Assembly: GCA_023267195.1 (NCBI GenBank)
Contig: JAHFNT010000002.1
Coordinates: 23,830 to 87,829, forward strand
From: Candidatus Nomurabacteria bacterium
GTDB taxonomy: Bacteria > Patescibacteriota > Minisyncoccia > Phycocordibacterales > UBA9973
DNA length: 64,000 nt
Reading direction: 5' to 3'
In this document: positions 6,286 through 60,725 of the stretch, piece after piece
Layout of the letters: every line of letters begins with the position of its first letter
How positions within the stretch are numbered: the first letter of the stretch is position 1
Translations under genes and position numbers: made by a program
Notes under the pieces: model-generated
What the model was told of the DNA's origin: nothing
The model's database searches: none
What the model saw: only the letters and a program-made list of their open reading frames with translations

Positions 6286-8028
6286 ATGACACAAAAAACA
6301 GAAAACCGAATATGCCAAAATTGTAAAAAAGATTTCGTCATTGAGCCGGAAGATTTTAATTTTTATGAAAAAATAAAAGTCCCTCCGCCAACTTTTTGCG
6401 CTGACTGTCGAGCGCAAAGAAGAATGAGTTTTATGAATGAACGAACTCTCTATAAAAGAAAATGTGATCTGACGGGTGGATCAATAATTTCTCTTTTTCC
6501 TGAAAATTCTGAAGTACCTGTGTATTCTCCTAAAGCGTGGTGGAGCGATGAATGGAATGCAATGGACTATGGACAAGAGTATGACTTTTCAAAACCTTTT
6601 TTTGAACAATTTAGTAAACTTTTGAGGCGAGTTCCGCAGTTTGCTCTCCAAAATCAATACACCACCCTGATTCGTACAGAATACGTGAATATGGGCACAA
6701 ATCTAAAAGACTGTTATATGGTATTCAATACTTCGTACAGCGAAGAATCAGCCTATACAACCTTTTTCCTGCATGGTAAAAAGTGTTTTGACATTTACAA
6801 AGGTGAAAAGCTTGAGCTTTGTTATGAAAGCTCACGACTGCATCAGTGTTATCGAGCTTTATACTGTGAGGATTCAGCCGATAGTTTTGATATTTCTTTT
6901 TCATACGACTTAAGAAATTGCAATAACTGTTTCGGGTGTTCGGGGTTGGTAGGCAAATCTTATTGTATTTTTAATCAACAACATACGAAAGAAGAATATG
7001 TTGAAGAAATTAAAAAATATAATCTTGGATCATACAAGACCGTAGAAGAGATAAAAAAGAAAGCAGAAAAAATAAGACAAACGCTTCCGAGAAGATTCAT
7101 GGAAGCAAGTCATAATGTAAATATAACTGGAAACAGGATATATAATTCCAAAAATTCTTATAACTGCTTTGAGGTAAACGGTCTTGAAAATAGTAAGTAT
7201 TGCCAATTTGTATATTACAAACCCGCACGGGATTGTTACGATATGACTTTGTGGGGACAAAATGCAACACGTGTTTATGAGTGTATGGGAGCGGGAGACA
7301 GCCAGGATATGATTAAGTTTTCCTTTGATTGTTGGGCGCCCGCAACGAACATTGAGTACTCGTATCACATTACTACACAAAATAAAAATCTTTTTGGTTG
7401 TGTTGGATTAAAAAATAAAGATTACTGTATTCTTAACAAGCAGTACACAAAAGAAGAGTACGAGGAGATGATTCCTAAAATAAAAAAACATATGGATGAA
7501 ATGCCTTACATAGATAAACGAGGGGTAGTTTACAAGTACGGAGAATTTTTCCCTTCAGAAATTTCACTTTTTGCCTATAATGAAAGTTTTGCTAATAGTT
7601 ACTTTCCTTTAGTGGAAGAAGAAGCAATTAAAAAAGGTTTCAGATGGAAAGAGATATCTATAAATAAATATGAGATTACCGTTACGGCCAAAGACTTGCC
7701 AGACGATATCAAGGACGTTGATGAGCCAATTTTAAACCAAGTTATTGAATGTGAAATTTCTAAACGGGCATTTCGCATAACCCCCTCAGAATTTCAATTC
7801 TACAAATCTATGAATATTCCACTTCCACGCCTTCATCCAGATGAACGCCATAAAAACAGATTAAGCAGAGAAAATCCACTGAAGCTCTGGCATAGAACTT
7901 GTATGTGCGATAAGGCAAATCATTATAATCATACAAGTCAATGCGAAGTAGAATTTGAAACAAGTTATGCGCCAGAGCGGCCAGAAATTATATACTGTGA
8001 AAAGTGTTATCAACAAGAAGTATATTAA
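6286..8028 (+). CDS. Cysteine-rich multi-zinc-ribbon protein, paralog P1 of a 5-member family of unknown function
   Basis: N-terminal zinc ribbon: CQNCKKDFVIEPEDFNFYEKIKVPPPTFCADCRAQRR. Duplicated core: NCNNCFGCSGLVGKSYCIFNQQHTKEEY and LFGCVGLKNKDYCILNKQYTKEEY. Also KHMDEMPYIDKRGVVYKYGEFFP and the C-terminus ETSYAPERPEIIYCEKCYQQEVY, all shared with P2-P5. Confidence 0.8.
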   Translation: MTQKTENRICQNCKKDFVIEPEDFNFYEKIKVPPPTFCADCRAQRRMSFMNERTLYKRKCDLTGGSIISLFPENSEVPVYSPKAWWSDEWNAMDYGQEYDFSKPFFEQFSKLLRRVPQFALQNQYTTLIRTEYVNMGTNLKDCYMVFNTSYSEESAYTTFFLHGKKCFDIYKGEKLELCYESSRLHQCYRALYCEDSADSFDISFSYDLRNCNNCFGCSGLVGKSYCIFNQQHTKEEYVEEIKKYNLGSYKTVEEIKKKAEKIRQTLPRRFMEASHNVNITGNRIYNSKNSYNCFEVNGLENSKYCQFVYYKPARDCYDMTLWGQNATRVYECMGAGDSQDMIKFSFDCWAPATNIEYSYHITTQNKNLFGCVGLKNKDYCILNKQYTKEEYEEMIPKIKKHMDEMPYIDKRGVVYKYGEFFPSEISLFAYNESFANSYFPLVEEEAIKKGFRWKEISINKYEITVTAKDLPDDIKDVDEPILNQVIECEISKRAFRITPSEFQFYKSMNIPLPRLHPDERHKNRLSRENPLKLWHRTCMCDKANHYNHTSQCEVEFETSYAPERPEIIYCEKCYQQEVY

Positions 8029-8029
8029 A

Positions 8030-8800
8030 ATGAAACACAATAAACCAAAAATTATAATTTTATCCGGATATGGGTTGAACTGCGAGGAAGAAACAAAGTT
8101 CGCTTTTGAGTGGGTGGGTGGCAACGTGAATATTGTACACATTAACGATCTTATAGCGAAGCCAGGGATGCTTAAAGAATATGACATTATGGTTTTCCCG
8201 GGTGGATTTTCGTATGGAGATGATACTGGGAGCGGAAAAGCTTATGCTAATAAATTTAAAAATCATTTAGCAAAAGAACTCGCGGAATTTTTATCGCGCG
8301 ATACGCTAGTGATTGGTATTTGTAACGGATTTCAAATCATCACCAATCTCGGAATTTTACCCGGTGGACTTACGTATAATAAAAATGAAAAATATTTAGA
8401 TAGGTGGGTTGACTTGGAAGTAAAAGGCGAGAGCCCTTGGCTTTCCGGAATTAAAAAAATATCACTGCCAATCGCGCACGGCGAGGGACATTATGTTATT
8501 TCCCAAAAAGAATATAAAGAAATGGAAAAAAGAAAACAAATTGCTTTTACTTATACTAAGGGAGAAATCTGTAATTTTCAAAACTTAGAGAAAAACCCAA
8601 ACGGTTCTGATTATGACATTGCTGGAGTTTTGGCATATAATGGCAGGGTACTGGGGCTTATGCCACACCCAGAACGTGCAATGTTTCCACACCAGAGCCC
8701 GCTTTGGCAAATGAACAAAACTAAACAAAAGGAGGGGGCAGGTTTACAGATTTTTAAAAACGCAATTAATTATTTCAGAAAAAATAAGCGACGAAAATGA
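8030..8800 (+). CDS. purQ: Phosphoribosylformylglycinamidine synthase glutaminase subunit PurQ
   Basis: Class-I glutamine amidotransferase: KIIILSGYGLNCEEE...IGICNGFQI (catalytic Cys)...HPER. The start ATG at 8030 lies just after the P1 stop at 8028. The ORF-track extension back to 7955 overlaps P1 and is rejected. Confidence 0.85.
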   Translation: MKHNKPKIIILSGYGLNCEEETKFAFEWVGGNVNIVHINDLIAKPGMLKEYDIMVFPGGFSYGDDTGSGKAYANKFKNHLAKELAEFLSRDTLVIGICNGFQIITNLGILPGGLTYNKNEKYLDRWVDLEVKGESPWLSGIKKISLPIAHGEGHYVISQKEYKEMEKRKQIAFTYTKGEICNFQNLEKNPNGSDYDIAGVLAYNGRVLGLMPHPERAMFPHQSPLWQMNKTKQKEGAGLQIFKNAINYFRKNKRRK

Positions 8801-10194
8801 ACGAACTGAAAGAAAAATGTGGAATCGTGGGCATATACGGGGCTTCGTTGCCTGTTTCTAGACTGGCGTTTTTCGCTTTGTTTGCGCTTCAACATAGAGG
8901 TCAAGAGGCCTCTGGCCTCACTACAAGCGACGGCAGAAAACTTCACACCCATAAAGGCGCCGGATTAGTGGCTCAAGTTTATAAAGAAAAAGATATAGAC
9001 AGTTTAAAAGGGTTTTTGGGTATAGGCCATAATAGATACTCGACCTCTGCCGGAGAAGCCCTAGACCATGCTCAGCCGGTGGTCAACGTGGAAAATTCTT
9101 TTGCGCTCGCCCACAACGGAAATCTGCCGAGTGTAAAAATGCTGGAGAAATTTCTTTCATCAAAAAAAATACCGACGAAGAACCACTCTGATTCTGAGCT
9201 TGTAACTGATGCTATTAGTTTTTATCTAAAAAATAATAATTCAATAATTGAGTCGGTGAAGAAAGTTTTCCCTCTGATTACCGGAGCTTTTTCTATGGTC
9301 ATGATGGATAAAAATAATTTAGTAGCGGTCCGAGATTCTTGCGGTATGCGCCCGCTATCGCTTGGCACTATAGGCAAGGGTTATGTTGTGGCTTCAGAAA
9401 CTTGCGCGCTCGATACAATCGGCGCATCTTTTGTGCGCGAAATAATCCCAGGAGAAATGATAATAATAAATAAAAATGGCTTAAAAAGCATAAAACTGGC
9501 AAAACCCAATCCCAAGCACGATATCTTTGAATACGTATATTTTGCCCGCCCAGATAGTATTTTTAATGGAAAATTAATTTATGAGGTAAGAAAAAACTTT
9601 GGCAAAACACTAGCACGAGAATGTTTGCTCAAAGTAGATATGATTGTACCTGTACCTGATACAGGCGTACCGGTGGCGCTCGGATACAGTGAAGTCTCAG
9701 GTATCCCTATGGAAATGGCCTTAGTGAAAAATCGCTACGTACATAGAACTTTTATTGAGCCTAGCCAAAAATCACGAGAACATAGCGTGGCTCTCAAGTT
9801 AATACCTTTAAAGTCAATACTAAAAGGTAAAACAATCGCCGTTATTGATGATTCAATAGTACGGGGAACAACCAGTAAAAGATTAGTTGAAACATTATTC
9901 AAGGCAGGCGCCAAGGAGGTTCATTTTTTAGTGTCCTCACCACCTGTGCGATATCCAGATTTTTACGGAATCGACACTCCGAAACAAAAAGAACTTATTG
10001 CTTCAAATAAAAATATTAAACAAATCAGAAAATTCCTAGGAGCCACCTCCCTCTATTTTCTATCACTCAAGGGTTTACTGGACTCAATCGGCCTACCCAA
10101 AGAACATCTATCCACTTCGCTTTTTACTGGTATTTACCCTATTGATCTAAAAGAAAGAAAACACGAAATAAATTATGATACCCCCAAAGAATAA
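8797..10194 (+). CDS. purF: Amidophosphoribosyltransferase
   Basis: The N-terminal nucleophile MNELKEKCGIVGIYG, the Ntn glutaminase domain and a C-terminal PRTase domain (VIDDSIVRGTT) are present. Confidence 0.9.
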   Translation: MNELKEKCGIVGIYGASLPVSRLAFFALFALQHRGQEASGLTTSDGRKLHTHKGAGLVAQVYKEKDIDSLKGFLGIGHNRYSTSAGEALDHAQPVVNVENSFALAHNGNLPSVKMLEKFLSSKKIPTKNHSDSELVTDAISFYLKNNNSIIESVKKVFPLITGAFSMVMMDKNNLVAVRDSCGMRPLSLGTIGKGYVVASETCALDTIGASFVREIIPGEMIIINKNGLKSIKLAKPNPKHDIFEYVYFARPDSIFNGKLIYEVRKNFGKTLARECLLKVDMIVPVPDTGVPVALGYSEVSGIPMEMALVKNRYVHRTFIEPSQKSREHSVALKLIPLKSILKGKTIAVIDDSIVRGTTSKRLVETLFKAGAKEVHFLVSSPPVRYPDFYGIDTPKQKELIASNKNIKQIRKFLGATSLYFLSLKGLLDSIGLPKEHLSTSLFTGIYPIDLKERKHEINYDTPKE

Positions 10195-13401: not shown

Positions 13402-13423
13402 GATTTAATCAAAAAATTTTAAA

Positions 13424-34596: not shown

Positions 34597-35649
34597 TTAC
34601 CTGCTGATAATTGCTAAAATTATGCCAACTATTGAAAAAATTATAGAAAAAACCCAAAAACGCATCGTCACTTTGTAGGTGGACCAACCAATTGCTTCTA
34701 GGTGATGATGGAGCGGAGCCAGACGGAAAAGTCGTTTGCCATTTCTAAATTTTTTAGACAACATTTGCAATACCACAGATAAAGAGGTAACAACAAAAGG
34801 CATCGCCACTATTGGCAGGACTAAAACGGAATCGGTCAAAAAAGCTAAGGTTGCGAGAGTTATCGTGAGACCCATCATCCCAGATTCTCCCATATAAAAT
34901 CTGGCTGGAGGAATATTAAACCACAAAAAGGCTAGCGTCGCCCCAGCAATAACTCCAGAAAAAGCCGCTATATCTATTTGATCATTAGAGAGAGCAATAA
35001 TTGAATATGCTCCGAAAATTGAAGCGAGTACCCCGCCCGATAGGCCATCAATCCCGTCTATCACCCCGCCCGAGAAAGTTGAGAGCGCCACTATAATAAA
35101 AAATGGAATAATTAAAATACCTAAATAAATTTCTCCGCCGAATGGTATGTGTATTCCCGTCATCCCTAGTTTATAGAAAAACCAAAGACCAATCAAAAAA
35201 GAAACCCCGACAACCAAAAGAGCTTTCCAGGCGCGCCAAGAGTTGTCGTCATGAGCGAATTTTCCACTGCCGTAAATTTGAATTAAATCATCAGAGAGAC
35301 CGATAAGCGAACCAAAGAGAAGCGTAAAGAATGGTATCAAGGTTTGATTCCGGCTTAAAAAATTCATTTTTTCGGTAGTTTCTGCGGGGAACCAAAGTGA
35401 TGCTAAATAAAAAATGAGAGTCGTTAGCAAGACCGATACCCAGATAATTATTCCACCCACCCGTGGCGTTTTCAGTTCTTCTTCTTCGTTGTGAATTTTT
35501 TTAAAATCTTCAATCTTATCTCCGTTTCTCGAATACTTTTTCCACATTTTGTATTTGTAGAAAAAATGAGTAGCTATGGGCGTCAAAAAAAGAGCTAAAA
35601 AGAAAGCCGCAGCTGTAGGAATTGAAATTTTAACTAAATTTAAAAGCAT
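34597..35649 (-). CDS. mraY: Phospho-N-acetylmuramoyl-pentapeptide transferase
   Basis: A polytopic membrane protein with MraY-type motifs (GLSDDLIQI; DGIDGLSGG; HHHLE). Confidence 0.85.
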   Translation of the reverse strand: MLLNLVKISIPTAAAFFLALFLTPIATHFFYKYKMWKKYSRNGDKIEDFKKIHNEEEELKTPRVGGIIIWVSVLLTTLIFYLASLWFPAETTEKMNFLSRNQTLIPFFTLLFGSLIGLSDDLIQIYGSGKFAHDDNSWRAWKALLVVGVSFLIGLWFFYKLGMTGIHIPFGGEIYLGILIIPFFIIVALSTFSGGVIDGIDGLSGGVLASIFGAYSIIALSNDQIDIAAFSGVIAGATLAFLWFNIPPARFYMGESGMMGLTITLATLAFLTDSVLVLPIVAMPFVVTSLSVVLQMLSKKFRNGKRLFRLAPLHHHLEAIGWSTYKVTMRFWVFSIIFSIVGIILAIISR

Positions 35650-35664
35650 ATTGTAATTATAGCA

Positions 35665-37413
35665 TTAATAAACTTCAGCCTGATAACATTTTTCACAGTA
35701 AATAATCTCTGGCCGCTCGGGCGCGTAGCTTGTCTCAAATTCCACCTCACACTTCCCTTCCCCATGGAAATGTTCTATGGTCGCTTGTGGTGAGCCTGCC
35801 GAACCACACATGCATGTCCTGTGCCAGAGCTTGAAAGGATTGCGGCGCTTGAGCCTAGCAGCGTGACGACAATAAAAACATCGCCTTGGAATTGGTATTT
35901 TCATTTTTCGGTAAAATATCAGTTCGTTTGGAATAATCTTGTAGTTGCGTTTGCATTCAATACACACAAGAACTTCTTCCAGAATCGAATCGGAAACATC
36001 ATAGATGCTCTCAGGAACCTGCTCGGGTTTTAATGTTTCTTTCCCAGTTGTGCGTTGAATATTATCTTGCCATTCATAGTTTTTGTTCAACGCTTCTCCT
36101 TTTGTAAGTGGAACTAATTCAGGAGCGTTTGTCTCATTGTAACCAAAATACGAAAGTTCAATCGGATAATATTCTCCATACTTATAAACATTCCCCATTT
36201 TGTCTACGTAAGGCGTTTTATTCATTTGCTCAATAATTTTCGGCACAAGTTCCTCATATTCCTCTTTCATATATTGTTTATTGAAAATGCAATACTTCGC
36301 GTTTCGAAGTCCCACACAGCCGAAGCAATATTTACAATTATGACAATGCTGCGTGTATCTTATATCCTGGCTTTTCACAGAAAAAAGTCCAAATAAATTA
36401 AGCTGTGAATGATCCATCACTGTCCCCTCATAACATTCTTGCGACTCCCCCGTAAGAGTAATGTCAGAACAGTCTTTGTCATCAGTAAATAAGTCGGAGT
36501 ACCTTACATTTTCAGATTTTTTGCCTGTAAAACATTTTTTCAGATTTTTTGACATGGAAATAATGTCCCCAGTACAATTTAGGCTTTGAAAATTCTGAAC
36601 ATCCCGCCTAGGATATCCTAAGAGAAATTCATCAAATTCCTTTTTTGCTTTTTCTACACCAGAAAATGTATCGAGTTCATAGCTTTTTAAAATTTTCTCA
36701 TATTCTTCTTTCGCATACTGTGTGTTTTTAAAATGATATTTTTTACCACGGAGCCCTGCACACATAAAACAATCAGAACAATCTCGACAATCATAAAGGA
36801 ACGACGAATCAATGCAAGCAAGACAAATTTCAGAATGTTTTACTTGGTATGAGCGGCTAACCATTATGCATTCATAGAGCCATTCACTTGGAGATCTTAT
36901 TACCATGCAGTCTAAAAAATTTTTGCCTGCTAATACAAAAAAACTATACATTACATTTTCAACATGCCAACCGGAAAAATTCATATAGCAATTTTTTGAG
37001 AACCACCAATCTTGATTGTATTCACAGTTTAAGCTAGCAATACCATCATCGTTTACGATGGACATATGCGGAACTTTTTGCACCAGTTCACGAAATTGAG
37101 CAAAAAATGGTTTTGAAAAATCATAGTCAATTCCATAATCTTTTGCATCCCACTTATCGCTCCACCAGCATTTGTTACAGTAGACAGTCAAACCTGAATC
37201 AGGAGAATATAATGAGACAACTCCCTTGCCACACATATCGCACTTACGATTATAGAGAGACATGTTGTTCCTCCACGCCCAACGTCTTTGTCTCCTACAA
37301 TCAGGGCAAAAAGTCGGTGGCGGAACTTTGATCTTTTCATAAAAGCCAAAATCGTCCGGTTCGATGGTGAAATTTTGCTTGCAATTTTGGCATATTTTAG
37401 TTTCCATTATCAC
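35665..37413 (-). CDS. Cysteine-rich multi-zinc-ribbon protein, paralog P3
   Basis: CQNCKQNFTIEPDDFGFYEKIKVPPPTFCPDCRRQRR; CFMCAGLRGKKYHFKNTQYAKEEY; CFGCVGLRNAKYCIFNKQYMKEEY; the C-terminal ribbon LVCIECKRNYKIIPNELIFYRKMKIPIPRRCFYCRHAAR; ends ...IIYCEKCYQAEVY. Confidence 0.8.
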   Translation of the reverse strand: MIMETKICQNCKQNFTIEPDDFGFYEKIKVPPPTFCPDCRRQRRWAWRNNMSLYNRKCDMCGKGVVSLYSPDSGLTVYCNKCWWSDKWDAKDYGIDYDFSKPFFAQFRELVQKVPHMSIVNDDGIASLNCEYNQDWWFSKNCYMNFSGWHVENVMYSFFVLAGKNFLDCMVIRSPSEWLYECIMVSRSYQVKHSEICLACIDSSFLYDCRDCSDCFMCAGLRGKKYHFKNTQYAKEEYEKILKSYELDTFSGVEKAKKEFDEFLLGYPRRDVQNFQSLNCTGDIISMSKNLKKCFTGKKSENVRYSDLFTDDKDCSDITLTGESQECYEGTVMDHSQLNLFGLFSVKSQDIRYTQHCHNCKYCFGCVGLRNAKYCIFNKQYMKEEYEELVPKIIEQMNKTPYVDKMGNVYKYGEYYPIELSYFGYNETNAPELVPLTKGEALNKNYEWQDNIQRTTGKETLKPEQVPESIYDVSDSILEEVLVCIECKRNYKIIPNELIFYRKMKIPIPRRCFYCRHAARLKRRNPFKLWHRTCMCGSAGSPQATIEHFHGEGKCEVEFETSYAPERPEIIYCEKCYQAEVY

Positions 37414-37447
37414 TATAATATACGACTTTTTTGATTAAAATGCATCT

Positions 37448-38269
37448 GTGTGTTATTGTTTTCAAGTGATTAAATTAGACTTAAAATATAAAGTCCTCCT
37501 GTGTATTTTCATTATTTTACTGCTATTAACTGGCATATTTTTGCTGATGAATTTAGAAACGGAAAGAGAAAAGGAAATTATTTACCAGCAGATTTTGGAA
37601 AAACAGCAGGCCTTGAAGAAGGCCTGGGAAGCGGAAGAAAAAAATTATCTGATGGGTAAATTTGATCCTAGCGCGAGAGGAGACTTCGTTCCTGTACCTG
37701 AAGAATATAATGTGAGCGGATATAAAACATATTTACGGAAAGAAACTTTGGAGGCATTTTTGAAAATGCGGGAAGCCGCAAGTTTAAGTGGAGTAGAACT
37801 TAATATTGCTTCCGCTACTAGAAATTTTAATTATCAAAAGAAACTTTGGAACGATAAGTGGTCAATAAAAGACAACTTTGATGGTTTAGAAAAATTCAAA
37901 GAAATATTAGAGTGGAGTGCTGCTCCCGGAACCTCGCGCCACCACTTCGGCACCGACATAGATATCAACAATGTAAACCCGCCGTACTTTGACTCGCAGA
38001 AGGGTGAGAAGGAATATAATTGGTTGGTAACCAATGCCAGCCAGTTTGGTTTTTGCCAGACCTATAATTTAAAAGGAAACAATAGGCCAACGGGATACAA
38101 TGAAGAAAAGTGGCATTGGTCTTACTTGCCCCTCGCTAGAAATTTTACACAAGAATATAAAGATTTAATTACAGAAGAAGACATTAAGGGATTTTTGGGC
38201 GACGAATACGTTGCTGGACAAAATTTAATCAACAACTATGTCCTTAGTATTAATTCTGAATGTCTTTAG
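37448..38269 (+). CDS. D-alanyl-D-alanine carboxypeptidase, peptidase M15B/VanY-like (LAS superfamily)
   Basis: An N-terminal TM anchor, then ATRNFNYQKKLW...GTSRHHFGTDIDIN (the zinc-ligand SxHxxGxAxD motif). Confidence 0.8.
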   Translation: MCYCFQVIKLDLKYKVLLCIFIILLLLTGIFLLMNLETEREKEIIYQQILEKQQALKKAWEAEEKNYLMGKFDPSARGDFVPVPEEYNVSGYKTYLRKETLEAFLKMREAASLSGVELNIASATRNFNYQKKLWNDKWSIKDNFDGLEKFKEILEWSAAPGTSRHHFGTDIDINNVNPPYFDSQKGEKEYNWLVTNASQFGFCQTYNLKGNNRPTGYNEEKWHWSYLPLARNFTQEYKDLITEEDIKGFLGDEYVAGQNLINNYVLSINSECL

Positions 38270-38804
38270 CCTCTTCCTCTAAATTCTTCGCCGCAATTTC
38301 CACAGAATTATTTATTTCTGAGTATTCTGGCAACTCTTCTACTGATTTCACCCCCATGAAAGATAGTAATTCAAAACTAGGTTTGTATATAAAACGTCGG
38401 CTGTCTTTCGGGTCTGTGGTTTTTTCTACTAACCCGCGGATAGAAAGCGCGCGCAAAGTAAAACTAGAATTTACCCCCCTGATATAATCTATTTCAGAAC
38501 GGCTAGCGCCATTTTTGTAAAGAATAATAGACAAAGTTTCAAGGCTTGCCTTGGAAAGATCTCTGTTTAATTCTTCTTTTTGTAAATCCTCAATTAACTT
38601 GCTCAATTCCGGGGCAGTGCCAAGCATAATTTCATTATCGTTTTCTAAAAGCACAATTCCTCTTTCCTTCAAGCTTTCTTTCAACTGTTCAATCCCTTCG
38701 TTTACTTCAATCTCCCCTACTTTTAAAATCTGCGAAACTCTCTTCCGAGAAATTGGCTCGCCCTTAAAGAAAAGTATTGCTTCTATTTTTTTTGCTAGTT
38801 CCAT
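38250..38804 (-). CDS. scpB: Segregation and condensation protein B
   Basis: ScpB winged-helix repeats: AILFFKGEPISRKRVSQIL...RGIVLLENDNEIMLGTAPE. The gene directly follows scpA. Confidence 0.85.
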   Translation of the reverse strand: MELAKKIEAILFFKGEPISRKRVSQILKVGEIEVNEGIEQLKESLKERGIVLLENDNEIMLGTAPELSKLIEDLQKEELNRDLSKASLETLSIILYKNGASRSEIDYIRGVNSSFTLRALSIRGLVEKTTDPKDSRRFIYKPSFELLSFMGVKSVEELPEYSEINNSVEIAAKNLEEEAKDIQN

Positions 38805-38809
38805 AATTC

Positions 38810-39565
38810 TTAATTCGTAATTTCTAATTCGTAATTTTCTTCAATCTTCTCAAGCACAATATCTTCTGATCCCTCTCTCTGCATTGCATTTATAATCCCC
38901 TGCCGGACAAGCTCAAGCATCGCGAGAAAACCCACTATCACTTCCACTTTCTCTTCGCGCGTGACCACTCTGCCACTATGTCCATGTAAATCTTTGAAAT
39001 TCATTTTTAGCGTCTGCTTGATTCTGTCCGAAAGTTTGTCTATCATCTCTTCAATGCTTATCACTTTCCTCACTTCTACTTCTGGCAAAAATATTTTCTT
39101 GGGAATAGCGTCTAGCACCTCGCGGGCAAAAGTCATCATAGATTCCTTGGTAATCTGCTTATCCGGCAAAAATATTAGAATATCATTCTTTCGCTCCAGG
39201 GGAGCAAAGATTATTCTCCTGCCAAAATTACTTTTTAGATTACCACCAAGCCTGGTAAAGAGCTCATACAAACGAAGCCTTTCTTCTAATTTACGGATAT
39301 CGCCCTCTTCCTCTTTGGTCAAATCAAGATTTGGCAAAAGCGATTTTGATTTGATCAGGAGCAGAGTGGAAGCGACTAGCACAAAGCTTGAAATTTCTGC
39401 CGGTGGCAATCCCCCCAATCTGCCTACGTAACCTAAATAATCTTCGGTCACTTGCGCCAGCGAGACGTCGTTGATAAAAAGCTTTCTTTTTTCTATAAGA
39501 TCAAGCAAAAGCCCAAAAGGGCCTTCAAATCCAGCTATTTTAAGCTTATATGTTTCGCTTTCCAC
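38810..39565 (-). CDS. scpA: Segregation and condensation protein A
   Basis: GFEGPFGLLLDLIEKRKLFINDVSLAQVTEDYLGYV is the ScpA N-terminus, and the C-terminal region (VEVIVGFLAMLELVRQG) is also characteristic. Confidence 0.85.
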   Translation of the reverse strand: MESETYKLKIAGFEGPFGLLLDLIEKRKLFINDVSLAQVTEDYLGYVGRLGGLPPAEISSFVLVASTLLLIKSKSLLPNLDLTKEEEGDIRKLEERLRLYELFTRLGGNLKSNFGRRIIFAPLERKNDILIFLPDKQITKESMMTFAREVLDAIPKKIFLPEVEVRKVISIEEMIDKLSDRIKQTLKMNFKDLHGHSGRVVTREEKVEVIVGFLAMLELVRQGIINAMQREGSEDIVLEKIEENYELEITN

Positions 39566-53419: not shown

Positions 53420-54755
53420 TACCCTAACTCGAAAAAAAGAGGAGTTCGCGCCAATCAATCCACCCAATGTTGGTTTTTATTCTTGCGGACCGACAGTATA
53501 CAACTATCAGCACATTGGGAATTATCGTGCCTATGTTTTCGCTGACACTTTAAAACGAGTGCTCGAGTACAGCGGATATAAGGTAAAGCATATTATGAAT
53601 TTAACGGACATTGATGATAAAACTATTCGTGACTCGCAAAAAGAAGGTAAATCACTCAAAGAATTTACAGAATTTTACTCAGAAAAATTTTTTGAAGATG
53701 TGAAGGTACTTAATATTATCCCCCCGCTTAAATTTACCAAGGCAACTGACTACATCGACGAAATGGTGGAAATTGTAGAGAAACTTTTAAAAAACGGACT
53801 CGCGTATAAAAGTGGAGACGGAAGCATATATTTTGATATTAAAAAATTTGAAAATTACGGCAAACTCTCTGGTCTCGTCCTTGAAGAACAGAAAGAAAAC
53901 GCATCCGGCAGAATAAAAACAGATGAATATGAAAAAGAAAATGCACAAGACTTTGCCCTTTGGAAATCATGGGATGAAAAAGATGGTGATGTGTTTTGGG
54001 AAACTTCGCTCGGTAAGGGTCGCCCGGGTTGGCATATTGAATGTTCTGCTATGTCGATGAAAAATTTAGGTGAACAAATAGATTTACACACAGGGGCTGT
54101 TGATAATATTTTTCCCCATCACGAAAACGAAATTGCCCAATCTGAAGGTGCCACGGGAAAACAATTTGTAAAATACTGGATGCATCTCGAGTGGATTCTG
54201 GTGGATGGCAAAAAGATGGCTAAGTCAGCCGGAAATTTCTATACCTTGAGAGATATTATAAGTAGAGGAGTTAACCCATTAGCCTTTCGATTTTGGCTTT
54301 TAATGGCTCATTATCGAACTCGTGTAAACTTCAACTGGGACGCCCTAGAAGGCGCAGAAACAGCGCTAAAACGCCTTTATGGGCTTTATTTAGACCTTGG
54401 AGAAACAGTAGGGAGCGTGCATCAAGAATACCAAAATAAGTTCAAAGAATTCATAGAAGACGACTTGGACACCCCGCGAGCTCTGACAATTCTCTGGGAT
54501 GTTTTCAAAGATGAAAATATGTCCAACGCTGACAAAAAAGCGACAGTTTTAGATTTTGATAAAGTACTTGGTTTAGGTTTTGCAAATTTGAAAGAAGAAA
54601 TAATTCCTAAAGAAGTTTTAGATTTAGCAAAAGCACGCGAACAAGCCCGAGTTGAAAAAGATTTCCAAAAATCAGACGATTTAAGAAAAGAAATAAATGC
54701 TCTCGGCTATGAAGTAAAAGATACTACAGAGGGCCAAAAAATAAGTAGAATTTAA
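53391..54755 (+). CDS. cysS: Cysteinyl-tRNA synthetase
   Basis: FYSCGPTVYNYQHIGNYRAYVFADTL (HIGH motif as HIGN), KMAKS (KMSKS), a zinc-ligand Cys at CGPT, and the DALR-like C-terminus. Confidence 0.9.
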   Translation: MSLNKIQFYNTLTRKKEEFAPINPPNVGFYSCGPTVYNYQHIGNYRAYVFADTLKRVLEYSGYKVKHIMNLTDIDDKTIRDSQKEGKSLKEFTEFYSEKFFEDVKVLNIIPPLKFTKATDYIDEMVEIVEKLLKNGLAYKSGDGSIYFDIKKFENYGKLSGLVLEEQKENASGRIKTDEYEKENAQDFALWKSWDEKDGDVFWETSLGKGRPGWHIECSAMSMKNLGEQIDLHTGAVDNIFPHHENEIAQSEGATGKQFVKYWMHLEWILVDGKKMAKSAGNFYTLRDIISRGVNPLAFRFWLLMAHYRTRVNFNWDALEGAETALKRLYGLYLDLGETVGSVHQEYQNKFKEFIEDDLDTPRALTILWDVFKDENMSNADKKATVLDFDKVLGLGFANLKEEIIPKEVLDLAKAREQARVEKDFQKSDDLRKEINALGYEVKDTTEGQKISRI

Positions 54756-55765
54756 GCTGGTTCTTGCTGAGTAATGCAATGGAGCGCCCCGCCACCATAA
54801 ATAAGATCCGTGCAATCTATCCCAACGATATTTCTATCCGGAAAACAAGATTTTATAATTGACAAAGCCTTTTCGTCGTTTTTATCTCCAAAAAGAGAAA
54901 CCAAAACTGTTTTGTTGCCAACATAAAAATTGGCGTATGAAACTGGGGCTTTTTTACTGTTGTGTTTTGCCCCATCATCATAATACATGTGCGGCATCGG
55001 GAGCTTTATAATTTCAAATTTCTTGCCATCTTGGTCAAAAGAATTCTCTAAAATTTTATAATTTTCAAGCAATCTTTCATAATTCTCATCTGTTTTATCC
55101 TCCTCAAAAGCGCAAAGAATTTTCGAAGGGCTGACAAAACGCGCCACTTCGTCAATGTGCCCATCAGTGTGATCATTCACTAAACCTTTATTCAGCCAAA
55201 CAATATTAGTTGCGCCTAAATTTTCCTTGAAAACCATCTCTGTGTCTTTTTTGTTCTTCCCGATATTGCGATTTAAAATCAAACATTCTTCGGTGGTTAA
55301 AATAGTTCCCAAGCCATTTGCCTCTATCGCTCCGCCTTCCATGGCCATATCGACACTTATCATTTGGAAACCAATTTGATCCTTCAAATTCAAAAAAATA
55401 TTATTATCGGGAGATAATTCTGGAAATTTTCCCCCGTAGCAATCATAATGCCACTTAATCCAAGCTATTTTCTTTTCAATTTTTATAAAAGTCGGCCCAT
55501 AGTCTCGCACCCAGACATCCATATAGGCGTTGTGGTAGAAAATAATTTTAGTTAAATCTGTGCCATTTTTCACAAGCAGAGCGCTTACTTCGTCTTGCAT
55601 TTTCTGATCAAGTACGAGCAGTTTCACCAGCTCATCAGTATGCAAAGCCAGAATAATTTTTAAGTAAATTTCTTTAATCTTATCAATGCGAGCACCGAAA
55701 TAATCATCATCATTCGGCCAGACCAGCCACGTCGCAGTATGCTTTTCCCATTCGGCCGGCATCAT
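54752..55765 (-). CDS. aguA: Agmatine deiminase (peptidyl-arginine deiminase-like family)
   Basis: PAEWEKHTATWLVWP...WVRDYGPTFI...GGGALHCITQQ, including the catalytic Cys at the C-terminus. Confidence 0.8.
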   Translation of the reverse strand: MMPAEWEKHTATWLVWPNDDDYFGARIDKIKEIYLKIILALHTDELVKLLVLDQKMQDEVSALLVKNGTDLTKIIFYHNAYMDVWVRDYGPTFIKIEKKIAWIKWHYDCYGGKFPELSPDNNIFLNLKDQIGFQMISVDMAMEGGAIEANGLGTILTTEECLILNRNIGKNKKDTEMVFKENLGATNIVWLNKGLVNDHTDGHIDEVARFVSPSKILCAFEEDKTDENYERLLENYKILENSFDQDGKKFEIIKLPMPHMYYDDGAKHNSKKAPVSYANFYVGNKTVLVSLFGDKNDEKALSIIKSCFPDRNIVGIDCTDLIYGGGALHCITQQEPA

Positions 55766-56637
55766 AAATATTTTTTGGTAAGTGAATTATAAGTATCGGT
55801 GCGGCGATTACGCAGGAAACCCCATTCTTCGGCAATTTGTTCATTGCTCCCTAAATTAATTTTGGAAATTAAAATTTCATCTTTGAACTTCCCCGCTCGC
55901 TTGATTATCTTGCCAAACGCATCACAGACAAAAGACTGCCCCCAGAATTTCAATTTATCTTCTTGGCCAACGCGATTGACTGCCGCAACATGTAAGCTGT
56001 TCGCTATGGCATGAGCGCGCATGCTAGTCTCCCAAGCCTCATGCCAATCCCCCTCCTTCTGTTTTTCGCCAACTATCGTTCCAATTGCCGTTGGATAGAA
56101 AATTAATTCTGCCCCAGAGAGCTTGACCGCGCGCGCCGCTTCGGGAAACCATTGATCATAACAAATGAGAACCGCAAAAGTAGCATATTCTGTTTTATAT
56201 ATTTTGTATCCATCTTTGCTGTCTTCAAAATAATTTTTTTCGTAAAAAAGAGGATCCTGCGGCACATGGATTTTCCTATAGGTTGGCATCAGTCTTCCGT
56301 CAATGTTTATTACTGCAGCTGAATTATGAAAACGGCCATTACTGTCTTTTTCAAAAACCGGCACGATAATTACAACCTTATGTTTTTTGGCAATCGCCGA
56401 AAAGACTTCGGTTGATTCCCCGGGAATTGTTTCAGAAAAATTATCTTTTTTGGCATTTTTATATTGCGGAAAGTAGGGAGTCCTATAAAGCTCCTGCAGG
56501 CAAATAATCTGCGCACCCTTTTTGGCCGCCTGTTCTACTAATTTCGCAGTTTTAGCTAAATTAACATTCAAGTCGGGCGATACGCTAGTCTGAATTCCTG
56601 CAACTATAACAAATTTATTTTTCATTTTATTGTTCAT
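55762..56637 (-). CDS. aguB: N-carbamoylputrescine amidase (carbon-nitrogen hydrolase family)
   Basis: A nitrilase-superfamily fold with an E-K-C triad context (QIICLQELY; VLICYDQWFPE). It lies directly downstream of aguA. Confidence 0.75.
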   Translation of the reverse strand: MNNKMKNKFVIVAGIQTSVSPDLNVNLAKTAKLVEQAAKKGAQIICLQELYRTPYFPQYKNAKKDNFSETIPGESTEVFSAIAKKHKVVIIVPVFEKDSNGRFHNSAAVINIDGRLMPTYRKIHVPQDPLFYEKNYFEDSKDGYKIYKTEYATFAVLICYDQWFPEAARAVKLSGAELIFYPTAIGTIVGEKQKEGDWHEAWETSMRAHAIANSLHVAAVNRVGQEDKLKFWGQSFVCDAFGKIIKRAGKFKDEILISKINLGSNEQIAEEWGFLRNRRTDTYNSLTKKYL

Positions 56638-57226
56638 TTCTGAAATATAACATATTTAAAATTTTCTTGCGATACAAAAAACAAACCATAATAATATTAG
56701 CAATTATCAGGTATAAACCAAATGAGTATATGGTAAAAGACCAATTTTTTATAATGAGCAAACCAAGAGTATTATTAAAAATTCCCGACAAATAAACAGT
56801 CGCCGTTTCAGTCTCCGGAAATTTCCATCCTTTAATATAAGTCGGTATAAAAGCGAAAAGATCGCTCAAAATTGCAAAAATAATTGATACTGCCAAATTA
56901 TGCGTTAATGCATACAATATTAATGCGAGCACAGAAAATATTCCGCAAATTATATCAAAAGTATTTAATTTCCAATATGCATTTTTTCTGAAAATTGAAA
57001 AGACAACAACAAGCAAGGGTCCAAGGCCGGCCATAAATACGGGTATTACAGAAAGGCCAGCCCCCGCTTTGAGTTGAAAAAATACGCCCAGAAAAGGGCC
57101 CAGTAACCAAAGAAACCAGGAAACCAAGTTAGGTTTAGTCGTTCCTAGAAAAATATTTTTAAAATAAAAAAAATATCCTATTAAGCTGACAAGAACTGCA
57201 ATATAAATTATTTTTTCCGGAAGCAT
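56627..57226 (-). CDS. Polytopic membrane protein, hypothetical
   Basis: 199 aa with five or six hydrophobic helices. It sits between the P4 paralog and aguB in the same-strand string. Confidence 0.45.
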   Translation of the reverse strand: MLPEKIIYIAVLVSLIGYFFYFKNIFLGTTKPNLVSWFLWLLGPFLGVFFQLKAGAGLSVIPVFMAGLGPLLVVVFSIFRKNAYWKLNTFDIICGIFSVLALILYALTHNLAVSIIFAILSDLFAFIPTYIKGWKFPETETATVYLSGIFNNTLGLLIIKNWSFTIYSFGLYLIIANIIMVCFLYRKKILNMLYFRNEQ

Positions 57227-57227
57227 A

Positions 57228-58937
57228 TTAATTAAATTCAGCTTGATAACATTTTACGCAATACACAATTTCGGGTCGGCCTGGTTTGTATGGAGTATAA
57301 ATTTCCGTTTCGCATTTTGCACAATTGCGATGATATAGCCCTGGTTTTGTCATTCTAATAAATCTCTTATCTTGTCGGCATTTTGGACATTCGTGTGGCG
57401 CTGGCAACCCCATTTTATGGAGTAAATCCAATTCGCCTTGGACTATTTTATACGCTCGTTTACAATTTGAGCACTCTATCACTTCTTCTAAAATTGAGTC
57501 TTGAGTTTCTTTAATTTTTTCTGGCAAATCTGCAGCTTTGATCGTAGGCTCCGCGGTTGGATTATCTTCATCACTCCATGTGTAGCCAAGGGACAGTGTC
57601 TGCTCTTTTGTTTTTGGAAAAAAGCGCATTGCATTTGATTTGTTATATGGAAACTGACTCATTTCTGACGGGAAAAATTCTCCATAGAAAAATTTACGGC
57701 CAAGCTTGTCCAGATATGGATTACTTTTCATGTCTGCAATTATTTCTTCTTTTAACTTTTCATATTCTTTTTTAGAATATTCTTTGTTTAAAATACAATA
57801 TTTTTTCCTCTTTAAACTAACGCAGCCGAAATTATCTTTCCCAGAAATTACATAATTACAATATGTGAGATTCAAAACATCTGGAAATGAATTCGCTGAA
57901 AAGAGCACTGTATCCGCGCCTTCTCCCACGTTCTGACACTCATAAATTTGTGATGCGCTTTGCCCCCAGCCAGAATAATCGTAACAATCCTTGGCTGTCG
58001 CTACGGTTATGAACTGACACCACTTACAATTCTCTGCATAATTTACGATATATCCTTCTTTGGAATTTTTTGAGCGGAAAGTATATTCCCCAGTCACATT
58101 TAAATTAAATGTATGCCCATGATATTCTCTGTATGGCTTCATAAGCCAAAACTCATAAGCCTTTTTTTCTACCTCTCGCAAGCCAGACCAGGTGTCTAGT
58201 TTCATATCTTTTATTTTTTCTTCATATTCTTCTTTTGAATATTTAACATTAAAAATAGAATTGGTCGCACCGCGTAGATTTACGCACCCTATACAATTAG
58301 TGCAACCATAACAGTTGCGGGAAAACCACACATCCACACAATTTTCTGATTCATCAGAGAAAAAAGTTCTGTAATTATTTATAAAACCTATTGATTCATA
58401 ACACAATTCCGAATCCCACCCCCTAATGCAGTCAGAGCTAAATCTTAATTTGTTTAGTATCGTAGAATAAAAAACAGATTCACAGTAGTCGGCCCAAAAT
58501 ACAAGATAACAATTTTTACAAGAACCCAGGTGATTACAATATTCAGAATTTTTAAGAGTCGTGTAGGAACTCTGAAGAGCGGGAAACGGGACTTCGGACA
58601 TTAGTTCTTTAATTTGGTCAAAAAATGGACGCGTCCTATCATACTCTTTCGCGAATTCTGTCCCATCCCAAGAATCACCCCACCAGCATGGTTGGCAATA
58701 TATTTTTATCCTATCTCCCGATGAGTACATAGATAAAACCCTTTTCTCGCATTTTTTGCATTTATTCCAAAATAAATTCCAAGTATTAGTAAAAGACCAT
58801 CTGCGAATCAGACGACACTCTGGGCAAAACGTCGGTGCTGGAACTTTTATTTTTTCATAAAAATTAAAATCTTCGGGTTCGATGGTGAAATCCTTCTTGC
58901 AATTCTGACATATTTTGGTTTCACTTTTATGTTCCAT
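57228..58937 (-). CDS. Cysteine-rich multi-zinc-ribbon protein, paralog P4 (most divergent member)
   Basis: CQNCKKDFTIEPEDFNFYEKIKVPAPTFCPECRLIRR; CTNCIGCVNLRGATNSIFNVKYSKEEY; FGCVSLKRKKYCILNKEYSKKEY; the C-terminal ribbon IECSNCKRAYKIVQGELDLLHKMGLPAPHECPKCRQDKR; ends ...IVYCVKCYQAEFN. Confidence 0.8.
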   Translation of the reverse strand: MEHKSETKICQNCKKDFTIEPEDFNFYEKIKVPAPTFCPECRLIRRWSFTNTWNLFWNKCKKCEKRVLSMYSSGDRIKIYCQPCWWGDSWDGTEFAKEYDRTRPFFDQIKELMSEVPFPALQSSYTTLKNSEYCNHLGSCKNCYLVFWADYCESVFYSTILNKLRFSSDCIRGWDSELCYESIGFINNYRTFFSDESENCVDVWFSRNCYGCTNCIGCVNLRGATNSIFNVKYSKEEYEEKIKDMKLDTWSGLREVEKKAYEFWLMKPYREYHGHTFNLNVTGEYTFRSKNSKEGYIVNYAENCKWCQFITVATAKDCYDYSGWGQSASQIYECQNVGEGADTVLFSANSFPDVLNLTYCNYVISGKDNFGCVSLKRKKYCILNKEYSKKEYEKLKEEIIADMKSNPYLDKLGRKFFYGEFFPSEMSQFPYNKSNAMRFFPKTKEQTLSLGYTWSDEDNPTAEPTIKAADLPEKIKETQDSILEEVIECSNCKRAYKIVQGELDLLHKMGLPAPHECPKCRQDKRFIRMTKPGLYHRNCAKCETEIYTPYKPGRPEIVYCVKCYQAEFN

Positions 58938-58970
58938 ATTTTTGCATATACGCTATAGCGTAGATTAATA

Positions 58971-60725
58971 TTAGTACACTTCTTGCTGGTAACATTTTTC
59001 ACAATAAATCACCTCTGGCCGACCGGGCGCATAACTTGTTTCAAATTCTACCTCGCAATTCCCCGCCGCATGATTTGCATGATTTTCCTTATCACACATA
59101 CAACTTCTGTGCCATAGTTTCATTGGATTACGAACTTTCAACCTTGCATCATGACGACAACCAAAGCAAAGACGAGGTATCGGCACCCCTATTCTTTTAT
59201 ACAACCTAAATTCATCTTCTGTGATTCTAAACGCCCCAGAACAGCGATCTCCGCATTCTCTATTGTGTAAACAACTGATGATTTCTTTTGGGATAGATTC
59301 TTGTACGTCTTTAAAACTATCAGGCAGATCTTCGGCTTGTATTGTTATTTGATATTCATTGGTCTTTTTATCTCGCCATCTATATCCCCTTTTGAGAGCT
59401 TCATCTTTTGTTAAAGGAAAATAATCTTGAGCCTGGGTTTCATTGTAGCAAAATGTGGATAATTCCGATGGAAAAAATTCTCCATATTTATAAATGAGAC
59501 CTTTCTTGTCGACATACGACATTGTATTCATGTGCTCAATAATCTTCGGTAAAAGTTTTTCATATTCTTCTTTACTGTATTGTTTATTTAAAATACAATA
59601 ATTTTTATTTCTAAGGCCAATACAGCCAAATAAATTAGAGCAATTAAAACAATAAAAAGAATATTCAACATTTTTGGAACTGTAAACCACATTCGTAAAA
59701 AGACTACGAAAAGAACCCAGACCACCGTCAAAAACTTCATACATCAATTCACCAATACCTACCCCGGGACCCGCATCATACGAATCCTTGATCCGCAGAG
59801 CCCAGTGAAGATATTTAGAATCTTCAACCTGTCCGGCTGTGTCAAAACTATTTTGACAATTTTTTGTCCCTTCAAGATTATCACCCGTAGAATTTACGAC
59901 TTTTATTTGATTGGTAAAACGATGTAAGGCATTCAAATAAAATTCTTTAAATTTTTTATGCAATCTAAGAATAGTTGAATAACTGGTTAGATCAAGTCCA
60001 GCTAAACGCTTGGCATATTCTTCTTTGGAAAGTTGCTCATTCCACATACAATATGACTTGTTTCGGAGATTCGTACACCCAAAACAATTTATACAACCAT
60101 GACAATCGTACAGAAAGTACGAATCCACGCAATTCTTACAATTTAAAGAATACAAAACGTGATAACAATCTGAACAAAATATATCGTCATAACAAAGCTC
60201 AGAACGATGAACAACATATAAATCGGAACTATCCTTAATTTCTGAAACTCTATTGGAATAAAATGTTTTTTCTATTATAAAACACGCTGAAGTCATATAA
60301 CTATCTTTGCTATCTTCCGCGACATTACAATAATCACTATTTACTGCTTTTGAATTCGAAAGAGATTGTTGGGGAAAAATATCTCTCAATTCTTTCCATT
60401 GTTCAAAAAACGGCTTAGAAAAATTATATTCTTTGCCGTAAGCAACAGCGTCCCAACTATCACTCCACCAGTATTTTATGTCATAAACCACAAGTTTTTC
60501 ATCAGGATGATATATTGTAATAATATCTTCATGGTGACTAGAAGCATCGTTTTTTCTTTTATAAAGAGACATTTCGTTTCTCCAACACAAACGTCTAATG
60601 GTGCGGCATTCTGGGCAAAAAGTCGGCGGGGGGACTTTTATTTTTTCGTAAAAGTTAAAATCTTCGGGCTCTATGATAAAGTCTTGTTTACAGTTTTGAC
60701 ATATTTTATTTTCACTTTTATACAT
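58971..60725 (-). CDS. Cysteine-rich multi-zinc-ribbon protein, paralog P5 (tandem with P4)
   Basis: CQNCKQDFIIEPEDFNFYEKIKVPPPTFCPECRTIRR; CINCFGCTNLRNKSYCMWNEQLSKEEY; LFGCIGLRNKNYCILNKQYSKEEY; ends ...VIYCEKCYQQEVY. Confidence 0.8.
   Translation of the reverse strand: MYKSENKICQNCKQDFIIEPEDFNFYEKIKVPPPTFCPECRTIRRLCWRNEMSLYKRKNDASSHHEDIITIYHPDEKLVVYDIKYWWSDSWDAVAYGKEYNFSKPFFEQWKELRDIFPQQSLSNSKAVNSDYCNVAEDSKDSYMTSACFIIEKTFYSNRVSEIKDSSDLYVVHRSELCYDDIFCSDCYHVLYSLNCKNCVDSYFLYDCHGCINCFGCTNLRNKSYCMWNEQLSKEEYAKRLAGLDLTSYSTILRLHKKFKEFYLNALHRFTNQIKVVNSTGDNLEGTKNCQNSFDTAGQVEDSKYLHWALRIKDSYDAGPGVGIGELMYEVFDGGLGSFRSLFTNVVYSSKNVEYSFYCFNCSNLFGCIGLRNKNYCILNKQYSKEEYEKLLPKIIEHMNTMSYVDKKGLIYKYGEFFPSELSTFCYNETQAQDYFPLTKDEALKRGYRWRDKKTNEYQITIQAEDLPDSFKDVQESIPKEIISCLHNRECGDRCSGAFRITEDEFRLYKRIGVPIPRLCFGCRHDARLKVRNPMKLWHRSCMCDKENHANHAAGNCEVEFETSYAPGRPEVIYCEKCYQQEVY

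Follow-up and report, generated by a model that had tools for sequence, protein, structure and literature searches.

A very large, undescribed family of Cys-rich proteins with a predicted double beta-solenoid core in the Parcubacteria

We have analyzed a 64-kb stretch of DNA from a Candidatus Nomurabacteria bacterium (contig JAHFNT010000002.1; the whole stretch is called the window in the following) and find that five of its genes, P1 to P5, are members of one very large, undescribed family of cytoplasmic proteins of about 580 amino acids (aa), which is restricted to the Parcubacteria/Paceibacteria and which we call the F family. Its members combine Cys4 fingers with two predicted beta-solenoids, and the comparison of many genomes points to ancient paralogues that differ systematically in the bodies of the solenoids only.

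P1 (6286..8028, forward strand, 580 aa) is situated between purL and purQ and P2 (16491..18251, forward, 586 aa) between guaA and purH; P3 (35665..37413, reverse) heads mraY-ftsW-murG, and P4 (57228..58937, reverse, 569 aa) and P5 (58971..60725, reverse, 584 aa) lie side by side, P5 directly downstream of dnaJ. A first-pass annotation of the sequence had described them as five full-length homologous open reading frames (ORFs), and its coordinates and strands proved exact. In the alignment the pairwise identities are 41-48% from end to end, all pairs being about equidistant, and a six-frame scan of the window with a hidden Markov model (HMM) built from P1-P5 recovered these five only and no fragments. 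Judged by both results P1-P5 are real, distinct and diverged paralogues. For P3 the frame opens with a GTG at 37413 (582 aa), and the start is probably the ATG at 37407 ('METKICQNC', 580 aa), since the translation from GTG with Val in first place is absent from the protein collection, in which the other four window proteins are present. Together the five genes take up 8.7 of the 64 kb (about 14% of the window, 5 of about 62 genes), although the window, with a GC content of about 0.38, was not selected for the presence of the family. Each protein has 27-36 Cys, corresponding to 5-6% of the residues, and neither a signal peptide nor a transmembrane segment was detected in the five sequences. Closer orthologues of each of them are found in other genomes, with 55-76% identity and 87% for P1.

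Clustered at 90% identity, the members retrieved by a profile search form at least 7,973 clusters. When 1.84 billion representatives were scanned exhaustively with HMMER, 5,044 clusters (50% identity) reached E <= 1e-3, and 2,194 of these reached E <= 1e-30. At least 595 loci in species-representative genomes carry the family, and the titles of the matched loci name Nomura-, Staskawicz-, Jorgensen-, Sungi-, Lipton- and Giovannonibacteria, Paceibacterota and Minisyncoccia, all of them Parcubacteria; some records bear the unconfirmed labels 'Saccharibacteria' or 'Burkholderiales', which stem from generic pipelines for metagenome-assembled genomes. We counted 236 members in 1.36 Mb (79 genome loci, locus L001 and the window), including head-to-tail arrays on one strand with 9 copies in 22 kb (L010), 11 in 22 kb (L032) and 7 in 11.7 kb (L036). 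The database copies are all unnamed or called 'hypothetical protein' and have no Pfam domain. Searches of the literature for the family, for the identifiers PF13451/TIGR04272 and for paralogue expansions in bacteria of the candidate phyla radiation (CPR) returned no description; 20 Parcubacteria-enriched families were merely called 'primarily hypothetical proteins' (Méheust et al. 2019). The view of the first-pass annotation that no characterised family has this architecture is upheld by this, by Pfam and NCBIfam matches that all stay below threshold and by an empty Foldseek search against the PDB. A defence system, a phage protein and a mobile element were considered and rejected, as the best matches had E 0.024 in PADLOC and E 0.01 in PHROG and the family is essentially absent from the viral contigs of IMG/VR (one marginal match at a contig end). 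The PHROG match (phrog_15341, solenoid region of P2) and matches to a pestivirus RNA-dependent RNA polymerase (E 0.15-0.9) were treated as noise.

The modules of the protein follow each other in the order A finger, B finger, linker, solenoid 1 with a Cys-rich cap, helix, solenoid 2 with its cap, helix, acidic mid domain, A' finger and B' finger. The two finger types, A and B, are both Cys4 treble clefs and are both duplicated, as is the narrow, flat beta-solenoid, whose coils are about 12 residues long. The module profiles, like the entropies and Cys occupancies given below, were taken from sub-alignments of 187 full-length members. With hhalign, solenoid 1 (aa 118-246) matched solenoid 2 (268-404) with a probability of 99.9% and E 2.8e-36, finger A (5-52) matched A' (483-531) with 99.2% and finger B (55-92) matched B' (533-580) with 97.4%, while A-type and B-type fingers are unrelated (probability below 10%).

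This architecture modifies the description as multi-zinc-ribbon proteins given by the first-pass annotation: Cys4 fingers do exist, yet they are not all intact in each copy, and the core is a double beta-solenoid. The spacing of the N-terminal finger, given as 25-27 aa, is in fact CxxC-24 aa-CxxC (C10, C13, C38, C41); among P1-P5 only P3 and P4 have all four Cys of the second ribbon (aa ~58-84), and P1 has lost those of the third (aa ~489-520). The motifs quoted at that time are present in the alignment, two of them, KHMxEMPY and DYDFSKPF, being just partly conserved in P3-P5. P3 and P4 have the complete set of four intact fingers, and the C-terminal one of P4 shows the canonical spacing C-x2-C-x17-C-x2-C. 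In P1, on the forward strand, the A-type finger covers 6298..6441 (aa 5-52; C10, C13, C38 and C41, then CRxxRR on a helix) and is followed by a degenerate B finger; solenoid 1 covers 6646..6981 (aa 121-232) and ends in a CxxCxxCxxC cap (aa ~209-218) and a YCIFNxQ strand, and solenoid 2 covers 7090..7443 (aa 269-386) and ends in the cap FGCVGLxxxxYCILNKQY. The helix and the acidic mid domain (7444..7731, aa 387-482) contain MPYxDxxGxxYKYGEFFPxExSxFxYN and have the lowest entropy; in the C-terminal A'-B' pair (7732..8025, aa 483-580) A' is degenerate and without its Cys, and B' has C539, C553, C571 and C574. The sequence CRxxRR is invariant after the second knuckle in both A-type fingers.

AlphaFold2 models of P1 (51 sequences; predicted local distance difference test, pLDDT, 80; predicted template modelling score, pTM, 0.83) and of P3 (107 sequences; pLDDT 85.4, pTM 0.87) agree with each other, and their high pTM suggests that the protein is one compact body. 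The mid domain is predicted with a pLDDT above 90. In the model of P1 strand bridges recur every ~12 residues, and in the sequences each coil of this length has a conserved stretch of 4-5 residues, [K/E][N/D]C[Y], followed by about 7 variable positions. The median net charge is -4 for the whole protein, +5 for the A' region and -6 for the mid domain, the solenoids being neutral to acidic; a DNA-mimicking solenoid was discarded because the net charge is near neutral. Pfam and NCBIfam scans of P1-P5, and of 51 members singly, detected no catalytic family.

How the paralogues are related was analyzed with 155 members from loci that contain more than one. For 97% of them the nearest relative is in another genome; the best identity within the locus is 44% in the median and at most 60%, and the best identity to other loci is 57.5% in the median and goes up to 82%. 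With the nearest relatives elsewhere and no pair within a locus above 60% identity, the paralogues are ancient lineages which are each retained across genomes, with no recent duplicates among them, and recent tandem amplification or an arms race was rejected on the same grounds. What had been annotated as a strong lineage-specific expansion of five copies is indeed a set of multi-copy paralogues, but one with far more than five members, class-wide in the Parcubacteria and ancient.

A genus-level relative of the window, locus L162 (MraY 81%, PepM1 74%, ScpB 73% and VanY 50% identical), allowed a closer comparison. P1 and its orthologue at this locus are 87% identical with a nonsynonymous divergence (dN) of 0.074, and the dN of the housekeeping neighbours is 0.13-0.38 (MraY 0.13, PepM1 0.18, ScpA/B 0.20-0.23), all above P1. 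The synonymous divergence (dS) is saturated even in this closest pair, so that the dN/dS test proposed earlier comes down to comparisons of dN; these show that P1 is strongly constrained, and purifying selection on the F paralogues is strong. At the L162 locus the five remaining F genes have at most 55% identity to P2-P5 and are not their orthologues. Hence there are at least ten paralogue lineages in this clade, and the set of F genes found at any one locus undergoes turnover. In the scpA-scpB-vanY-mraY region there are six F genes in L162 (6953-20663) and one in the window (34597-39565), and the P1 orthologue stands in this array in L162 and in the pur operon in the window. The placement of F genes is fluid although their sequences are highly conserved.

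Multiple copies and positions that differ between relatives are also what one would expect of an artefact or a selfish element, i.e., a collapsed or duplicated assembly or a mobile cassette. We give this explanation next to no credence: the copies are only 41-48% identical and have orthologues on independent contigs from many studies, which excludes the collapsed duplicates that the first-pass annotation had named as an alternative, no pair within a locus exceeds 60% identity, and there is no transposase, integrase or repeat boundary and no viral or plasmid signal.

The divergence between the paralogues is not spread evenly over the protein. The relative identity of the two solenoid bodies is 1.03 and 0.98 in 123 orthologue pairs and 0.71 and 0.66 in 236 pairs of paralogues from the same locus, and for all other modules the orthologue/paralogue ratio is 0.74-1.04 in these pairs. 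Only in the solenoid bodies do the alignments combine systematic divergence between paralogues with conservation within orthologues; this module-wise comparison argues for a constant chassis of fingers, caps and mid domain which carries paralogue-specific solenoid bodies.

Four Cys4 clusters of this chassis are near-universal. In P1 numbering these are site A (C10/C13/C38/C41, occupied in 99-100% of the members), cap 1 (C209/C212/C215/C218, 77-96%), site A' (C489/C492/C517/C520, 88-99%, lost in P1) and site B' (C539/C553/C571/C574, 99-100%). Optional are the site of the B finger, present in about 45% of the members and here in P3 and P4, and a partial site in cap 2. The exact spacing C-x2-C-x17-C-x2-C is found in P3 (C58/C61...C79/C82) and twice in P4 (C60/C63...C81/C84 and C539/C542...C560/C563); in B' of P1, P2, P3 and P5 the first knuckle is interrupted and this spacing is lost. 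In small proteins of Methanosarcina (M. mazei) a CxxC-x17-CxxC domain binds zinc as determined by inductively coupled plasma mass spectrometry for two members (PMC12704099), and by analogy we infer that the Cys4 sites of the F proteins bind structural zinc.

Alternatively the Cys could be the functional part of the protein. As metal-handling or redox proteins the F proteins would bind Fe-S clusters or buffer Zn/Cu with the Cys ladders of their coils and the CxxCxxCxxC caps, for storage, as chaperones or in electron transfer. We consider this highly improbable. At a Cys content of 5-6% most coil Cys positions have an occupancy of 33-67% and are thus not obligate ligands, the Pfam and NCBIfam scans gave no match to an Fe-S family, and storage would leave unexplained why there are dozens of ancient paralogues with surfaces that are conserved between orthologues and divergent between paralogues.

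A possible partner of the family emerged from the genes around it. Genes in these loci were called by crude rules, with the first ATG as start, a minimum of 80 aa and removal of overlaps. When the non-family ORFs were clustered, the largest cluster consisted of VirD4/TrwB-like P-loop ATPases resembling type IV coupling proteins (T4CPs), with 51 genes in 33 of the 80 F-centred loci, 50 of them at most three genes away from an F gene. The gene directly downstream is an F gene for 16 of 46 T4CP-like genes (35%) versus 85 of 847 other genes (10%; odds ratio 4.8, p 1e-5). In 80 metagenome loci centred on T4CP-like genes the fraction of F genes peaks at positions +1 and +2 (0.21 and 0.20) and is 0.05-0.08 at +/-7-8. 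In the window this commonest neighbour is represented by an orphan ATPase of the short form (61842..63413, reverse, 523 aa) without N-terminal membrane anchor; the Pfam and NCBIfam scores of the short form lie below all cutoffs, its best PDB match is TrwB (E 1e-6), and the superfamily matches of these ATPases are TrwB, HerA and CedD.

T4CP-like genes come in two sizes, ~490 aa and ~700 aa, which are repeatedly found together in loci of the Parcubacteria, and two arrangements place them just upstream of F genes. The first, of which the window is an example, reads PaaX-like< DnaK> T4CP~700> F...> RsmE< T4CP~490> DnaJ> F> 199aa>, and the second SecDF, sigma-r4/HARE-HTH protein, 436-aa membrane protein, T4CP~490> CutA> F array. 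On a 4-kb contig a long T4CP with a CxxC-x17-CxxC finger lies just past the right edge of the window (L164 35-1678). The HMM of the B finger, run against 953 non-family ORFs, matched T4CP-like ATPases only, nearly all of them of the long form (19 at E <0.02, the next non-T4CP at E ~1), and the finger of the long T4CPs is a bona fide TIGR04272 domain (44.8 bits for the long T4CP next to the window, cutoff 36).

In the window the recurrent block T4CP-dnaJ-F-199aa contains dnaJ at 60728..61834 (reverse), then P5 and P4, and then a conserved multi-pass membrane protein of 199 aa without Pfam or NCBIfam match (56627..57226, reverse), which adjoins an F gene in six of the eight loci carrying it. The polyamine genes for N-carbamoylputrescine amidase and agmatine deiminase follow (54752-56637). 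In loci of the second arrangement a 436-aa protein with an N-terminal transmembrane segment and no Pfam match (L076 4380-5687, cluster c6) and a 342-aa protein with Sigma70_r4 and HARE-HTH domains (L079 5267-6292, cluster c14) are encoded between secDF and the T4CP-like gene, and both may belong to the same module as the T4CP and F genes. A CutA1 homologue adjoins an F gene in all seven loci carrying CutA1 (L005, L008, L010, L019, L078 and others; L010 4367-4678), the gene order being mostly T4CP > CutA > F array; a connection to metals is possible.

The operons in which the single genes are embedded say little on the function of the family, since these contexts are not conserved for the orthologues. 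An orthologue of P1 with 70% identity adjoins genes for ribonucleotide reductase, DsbB, CutA and pilus proteins, and the best orthologue of P2 (76%) directly follows a long T4CP-like gene in L024. A purine-related role of P1 and P2 was rejected in view of this 70% orthologue and of the 87% orthologue in the scpAB-vanY-mraY array.

Our favoured reading, which we put forward tentatively and with clearly less than even confidence, is that the F protein is a zinc-stabilised constant chassis with paralogue-specific binding surfaces, in other words a target-specific adaptor, which possibly works with the VirD4-like ATPases. Structural zinc at the Cys4 sites would hold fingers and caps firmly against the solenoid ends. 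The chassis, formed by these and by the mid domain, would perform a task common to all paralogues, for example docking to a shared partner, and the flat faces of the solenoids would serve as recognition surfaces with which each paralogue binds a different target, so that the family would be a repertoire of non-enzymatic adaptors. More speculatively, the shared partner could be the orphan VirD4/TrwB-like ATPase, as the commonest neighbour of F genes and as carrier, in its long form, of the same kind of finger, C-x2-C-x17-C-x2-C; in such a pair the work would be done by the ATPase, and specificity would come from the F paralogues. That such interchangeable recognition subunits plug into exapted VirD4-like motors operating independently of a type IV secretion system (T4SS) and thereby form a lineage-defining targeting machine appears unlikely to us. 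If true, the machine might act selectively on macromolecules derived from the host, e.g., by capturing, remodelling or translocating them.

Several observations count against this reading. What speaks for adaptors is confined to the evolutionary pattern and the predicted fold, and precisely the solenoid bodies are the part of the P1 and P3 models with the lowest confidence (pLDDT 60-73); that their variable residues face outward is a presumption. The link to the ATPase is a genuine regional enrichment and not an obligate pairing: P1, P2 and P3 are more than 20 kb away from the T4CP gene, many F genes are far from any T4CP gene, and the distant T4CP relatives in the T4CP-centred metagenome loci are mostly without a nearby F gene. 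The loci are also phylogenetically non-independent, and much of the adjacency could be synteny inherited within two clades. The shared B finger, considered as proof of a coupling between F proteins and T4CPs, is weakened in this role, as its presence in the T4CP does not correlate with the presence of F genes in the same locus (p 0.39). Finally, nucleic-acid binding is just as compatible with the conserved helices carrying CRxxRR and with the basic charge (+5) of the A' region.

The F proteins could accordingly be sequence-specific nucleic-acid binders in which the solenoid face reads an RNA or DNA target and the Arg-rich finger helices grip the backbone, following the logic of the PPR and PUF proteins; they could act in RNA processing or transcriptional control in a genome with few classical regulators. 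Besides the CRxxRR of both A-type fingers and the charge of the A' region, the many ancient, individually conserved paralogues with a variable region on a repeat scaffold speak for it, as do the superfamily of the partner ATPase, which is one of DNA translocases, and the role in transcription which the authors of the M. mazei study proposed for the CxxC-x17-CxxC domain (PMC12704099). On the other hand the whole protein is slightly acidic (median -4) with neutral to acidic solenoids, and no known nucleic-acid-binding domain appeared in the Pfam and NCBIfam scans. For the fingers the sole PDB similarity is with LIM, which binds proteins, and orthologues occur in unrelated operons across genomes, which argues against an association with a target in cis. 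On balance we regard nucleic-acid binding as doubtful.

The position of F genes directly downstream of T4CP-like genes can also be read in the way that the F proteins are effectors, recruited by the VirD4-like coupling proteins and delivered by a T4SS into the hosts of these episymbionts, with the C-terminal tail as signal. The C-terminus is very well conserved, a multigene repertoire is typical of effectors, and T4SSs are widespread in the Patescibacteria (PMC12102498). We nevertheless think that this is improbable. Of 5,713 T4CPs in 2,918 patescibacterial genomes, which are rich in orphans, 148 are near virB4, and a role outside secretion is considered possible (PMC12102498). No VirB4-like gene was present among the window neighbours scanned, and neither relaxase genes nor genes for a T4SS channel were observed next to the T4CPs. 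The short T4CP has no N-terminal membrane anchor. The F proteins themselves are ancient and slow-evolving, with P1 more conserved than MraY, and neither recent duplicates nor fast-evolving copies occur, which sets them apart from the usual repertoires of effectors; their four or more inferred zinc sites would resist the unfolding needed for transport by a T4SS, and no toxin or enzyme domain was found in Pfam, NCBIfam or PADLOC.

The regions upstream of the F genes were also analyzed. The sequence (G)CGTATAT is found 8-14 nt before the starts of P1, P3 and P4 (6266-6279, 37421-37431 and 58944-58958) and is not general in the family, and a promoter or regulon specific for F genes was rejected, as 6-mer enrichment, the position of a -10-like hexamer and the usage of Shine-Dalgarno motifs are the same in 183 F and 940 non-F genes. 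A Shine-Dalgarno-like motif precedes only about 9% of the genes, F or non-F, and a -10-like hexamer ~12 nt before the start is common; the rarity of the former and the closeness of the latter to the starts suggest widespread leaderless or short-leader translation in these genomes. Two further features of the window should be mentioned. A near-complete de novo purine pathway with its AMP and GMP branches is clustered at 3379-23835 (purL, purQ, purF, purN, purD, purA, guaB, guaA, purH, purE, a purM-like gene, purC and purB), and most CPR bacteria are reported to be without de novo nucleotide synthesis (PMC6744442). The start of the window (9-1802, forward) encodes a CPx-type heavy-metal P-type ATPase, with no link to the F family seen.

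Genomes of the CPR/Patescibacteria are among the smallest and most streamlined in bacteria, and most of their lineage-specific genes are unexplained. One unnamed family with thousands of clusters, of which P1 evolves more slowly than core genes of cell-wall synthesis and segregation, is a strong sign of a central role in the Parcubacteria. Our results supply a domain map, the near-universal Cys4 sites, the likely specificity regions and a candidate ATPase partner, and we think that the family merits a Pfam/DUF entry even if the link to the ATPase should fail. The role of the orphan VirD4-like ATPases in the Patescibacteria is a live question in the recent literature (PMC12102498).

When the family is set beside known systems, the likenesses concern its parts. 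The A and A' fingers resemble zf_Tbcl (PF13451) in having two CxxC knuckles which form one Cys4 site, a segment rich in Phe/Tyr between them and a CR-x2-R helix behind. PF13451 has, however, never been described inside a 580-aa solenoid protein, and all F matches stay below its gathering cutoff of 24: the scores in the window are at most 16.8 bits (P1 aa 8-47; P5 15.0 bits), and 13 of the 51 members match at E <0.05, the best at 1e-3. The B and B' fingers share with TIGR04272/zf_Tbcl_2 (PF23477) the exact C-x2-C-x17-C-x2-C spacing in P3 and P4; here too the best F scores (19.5 and 19.8 bits, C-terminus of P4) are below the cutoffs of 36 and 27, and in most paralogues a His-rich insertion splits the first knuckle of B'.

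Against the PDB the B-finger profile matched the second zinc module of LIM domains (CRP/MLP; E 3e-4 to 7e-3), which mediate interactions between proteins. The Cys spacing is identical, and 'YC..C[YW]' is conserved in both. The F proteins match half of a LIM domain only, as there is no contiguous first finger with the LIM pattern C-x2-C-x16-23-H-x2-C before the module C-x2-C-x16-21-C-x2-(C/H/D), and the finger upstream is of the unrelated A type; none of the 51 members matched LIM in Pfam, and the similarity may reflect the common treble-clef geometry and not shared descent. The separate profiles of the A finger and the mid domain found nothing in the PDB, and the profile search of its sequences with the family reached an E of about 0.9 only.

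In fold the solenoid is similar to the narrow beta-roll ice-binding proteins (Lolium perenne ice-binding protein, 3ult; spruce budworm antifreeze protein, 1m8n). With 6% identity, no HMM match, a cytoplasmic, zinc-capped protein of two solenoids and no sign of an ice-binding face on the side of the F family, they are analogues and not homologues. Hexapeptide repeats, the triangular coil of 18 residues and a Pfam Hexapep match, which mark the left-handed beta-helix acyltransferases, are lacking in the F proteins, and that these would be solenoid enzymes, e.g., acyl- or glycosyl-transferases of the left-handed beta-helix type with a different substrate for each paralogue, has in our opinion a very small probability. 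The A(D/N)LXX repeats, the square coil of 20 residues and the strongly acidic surface of the pentapeptide-repeat proteins are likewise lacking.

Coupling proteins of T4SSs act with dedicated substrate-recognition partners, and F genes are enriched, though not obligately placed, beside genes of VirD4-like ATPases. They differ from the VirD4/TrwB/TraD systems in that the associated T4CPs are orphans with scores below the family cutoffs and that their coupling to the F family is statistical. To sum up, the F family fits into no characterised family or system that could be named, whereas its building blocks, treble-clef fingers and a beta-solenoid, are already known structural kinds. In its overall logic it resembles the pentapeptide-repeat proteins Qnr and MfpA and the PPR and PUF proteins, with a regular repeat scaffold whose surface residues differ among many retained paralogues.

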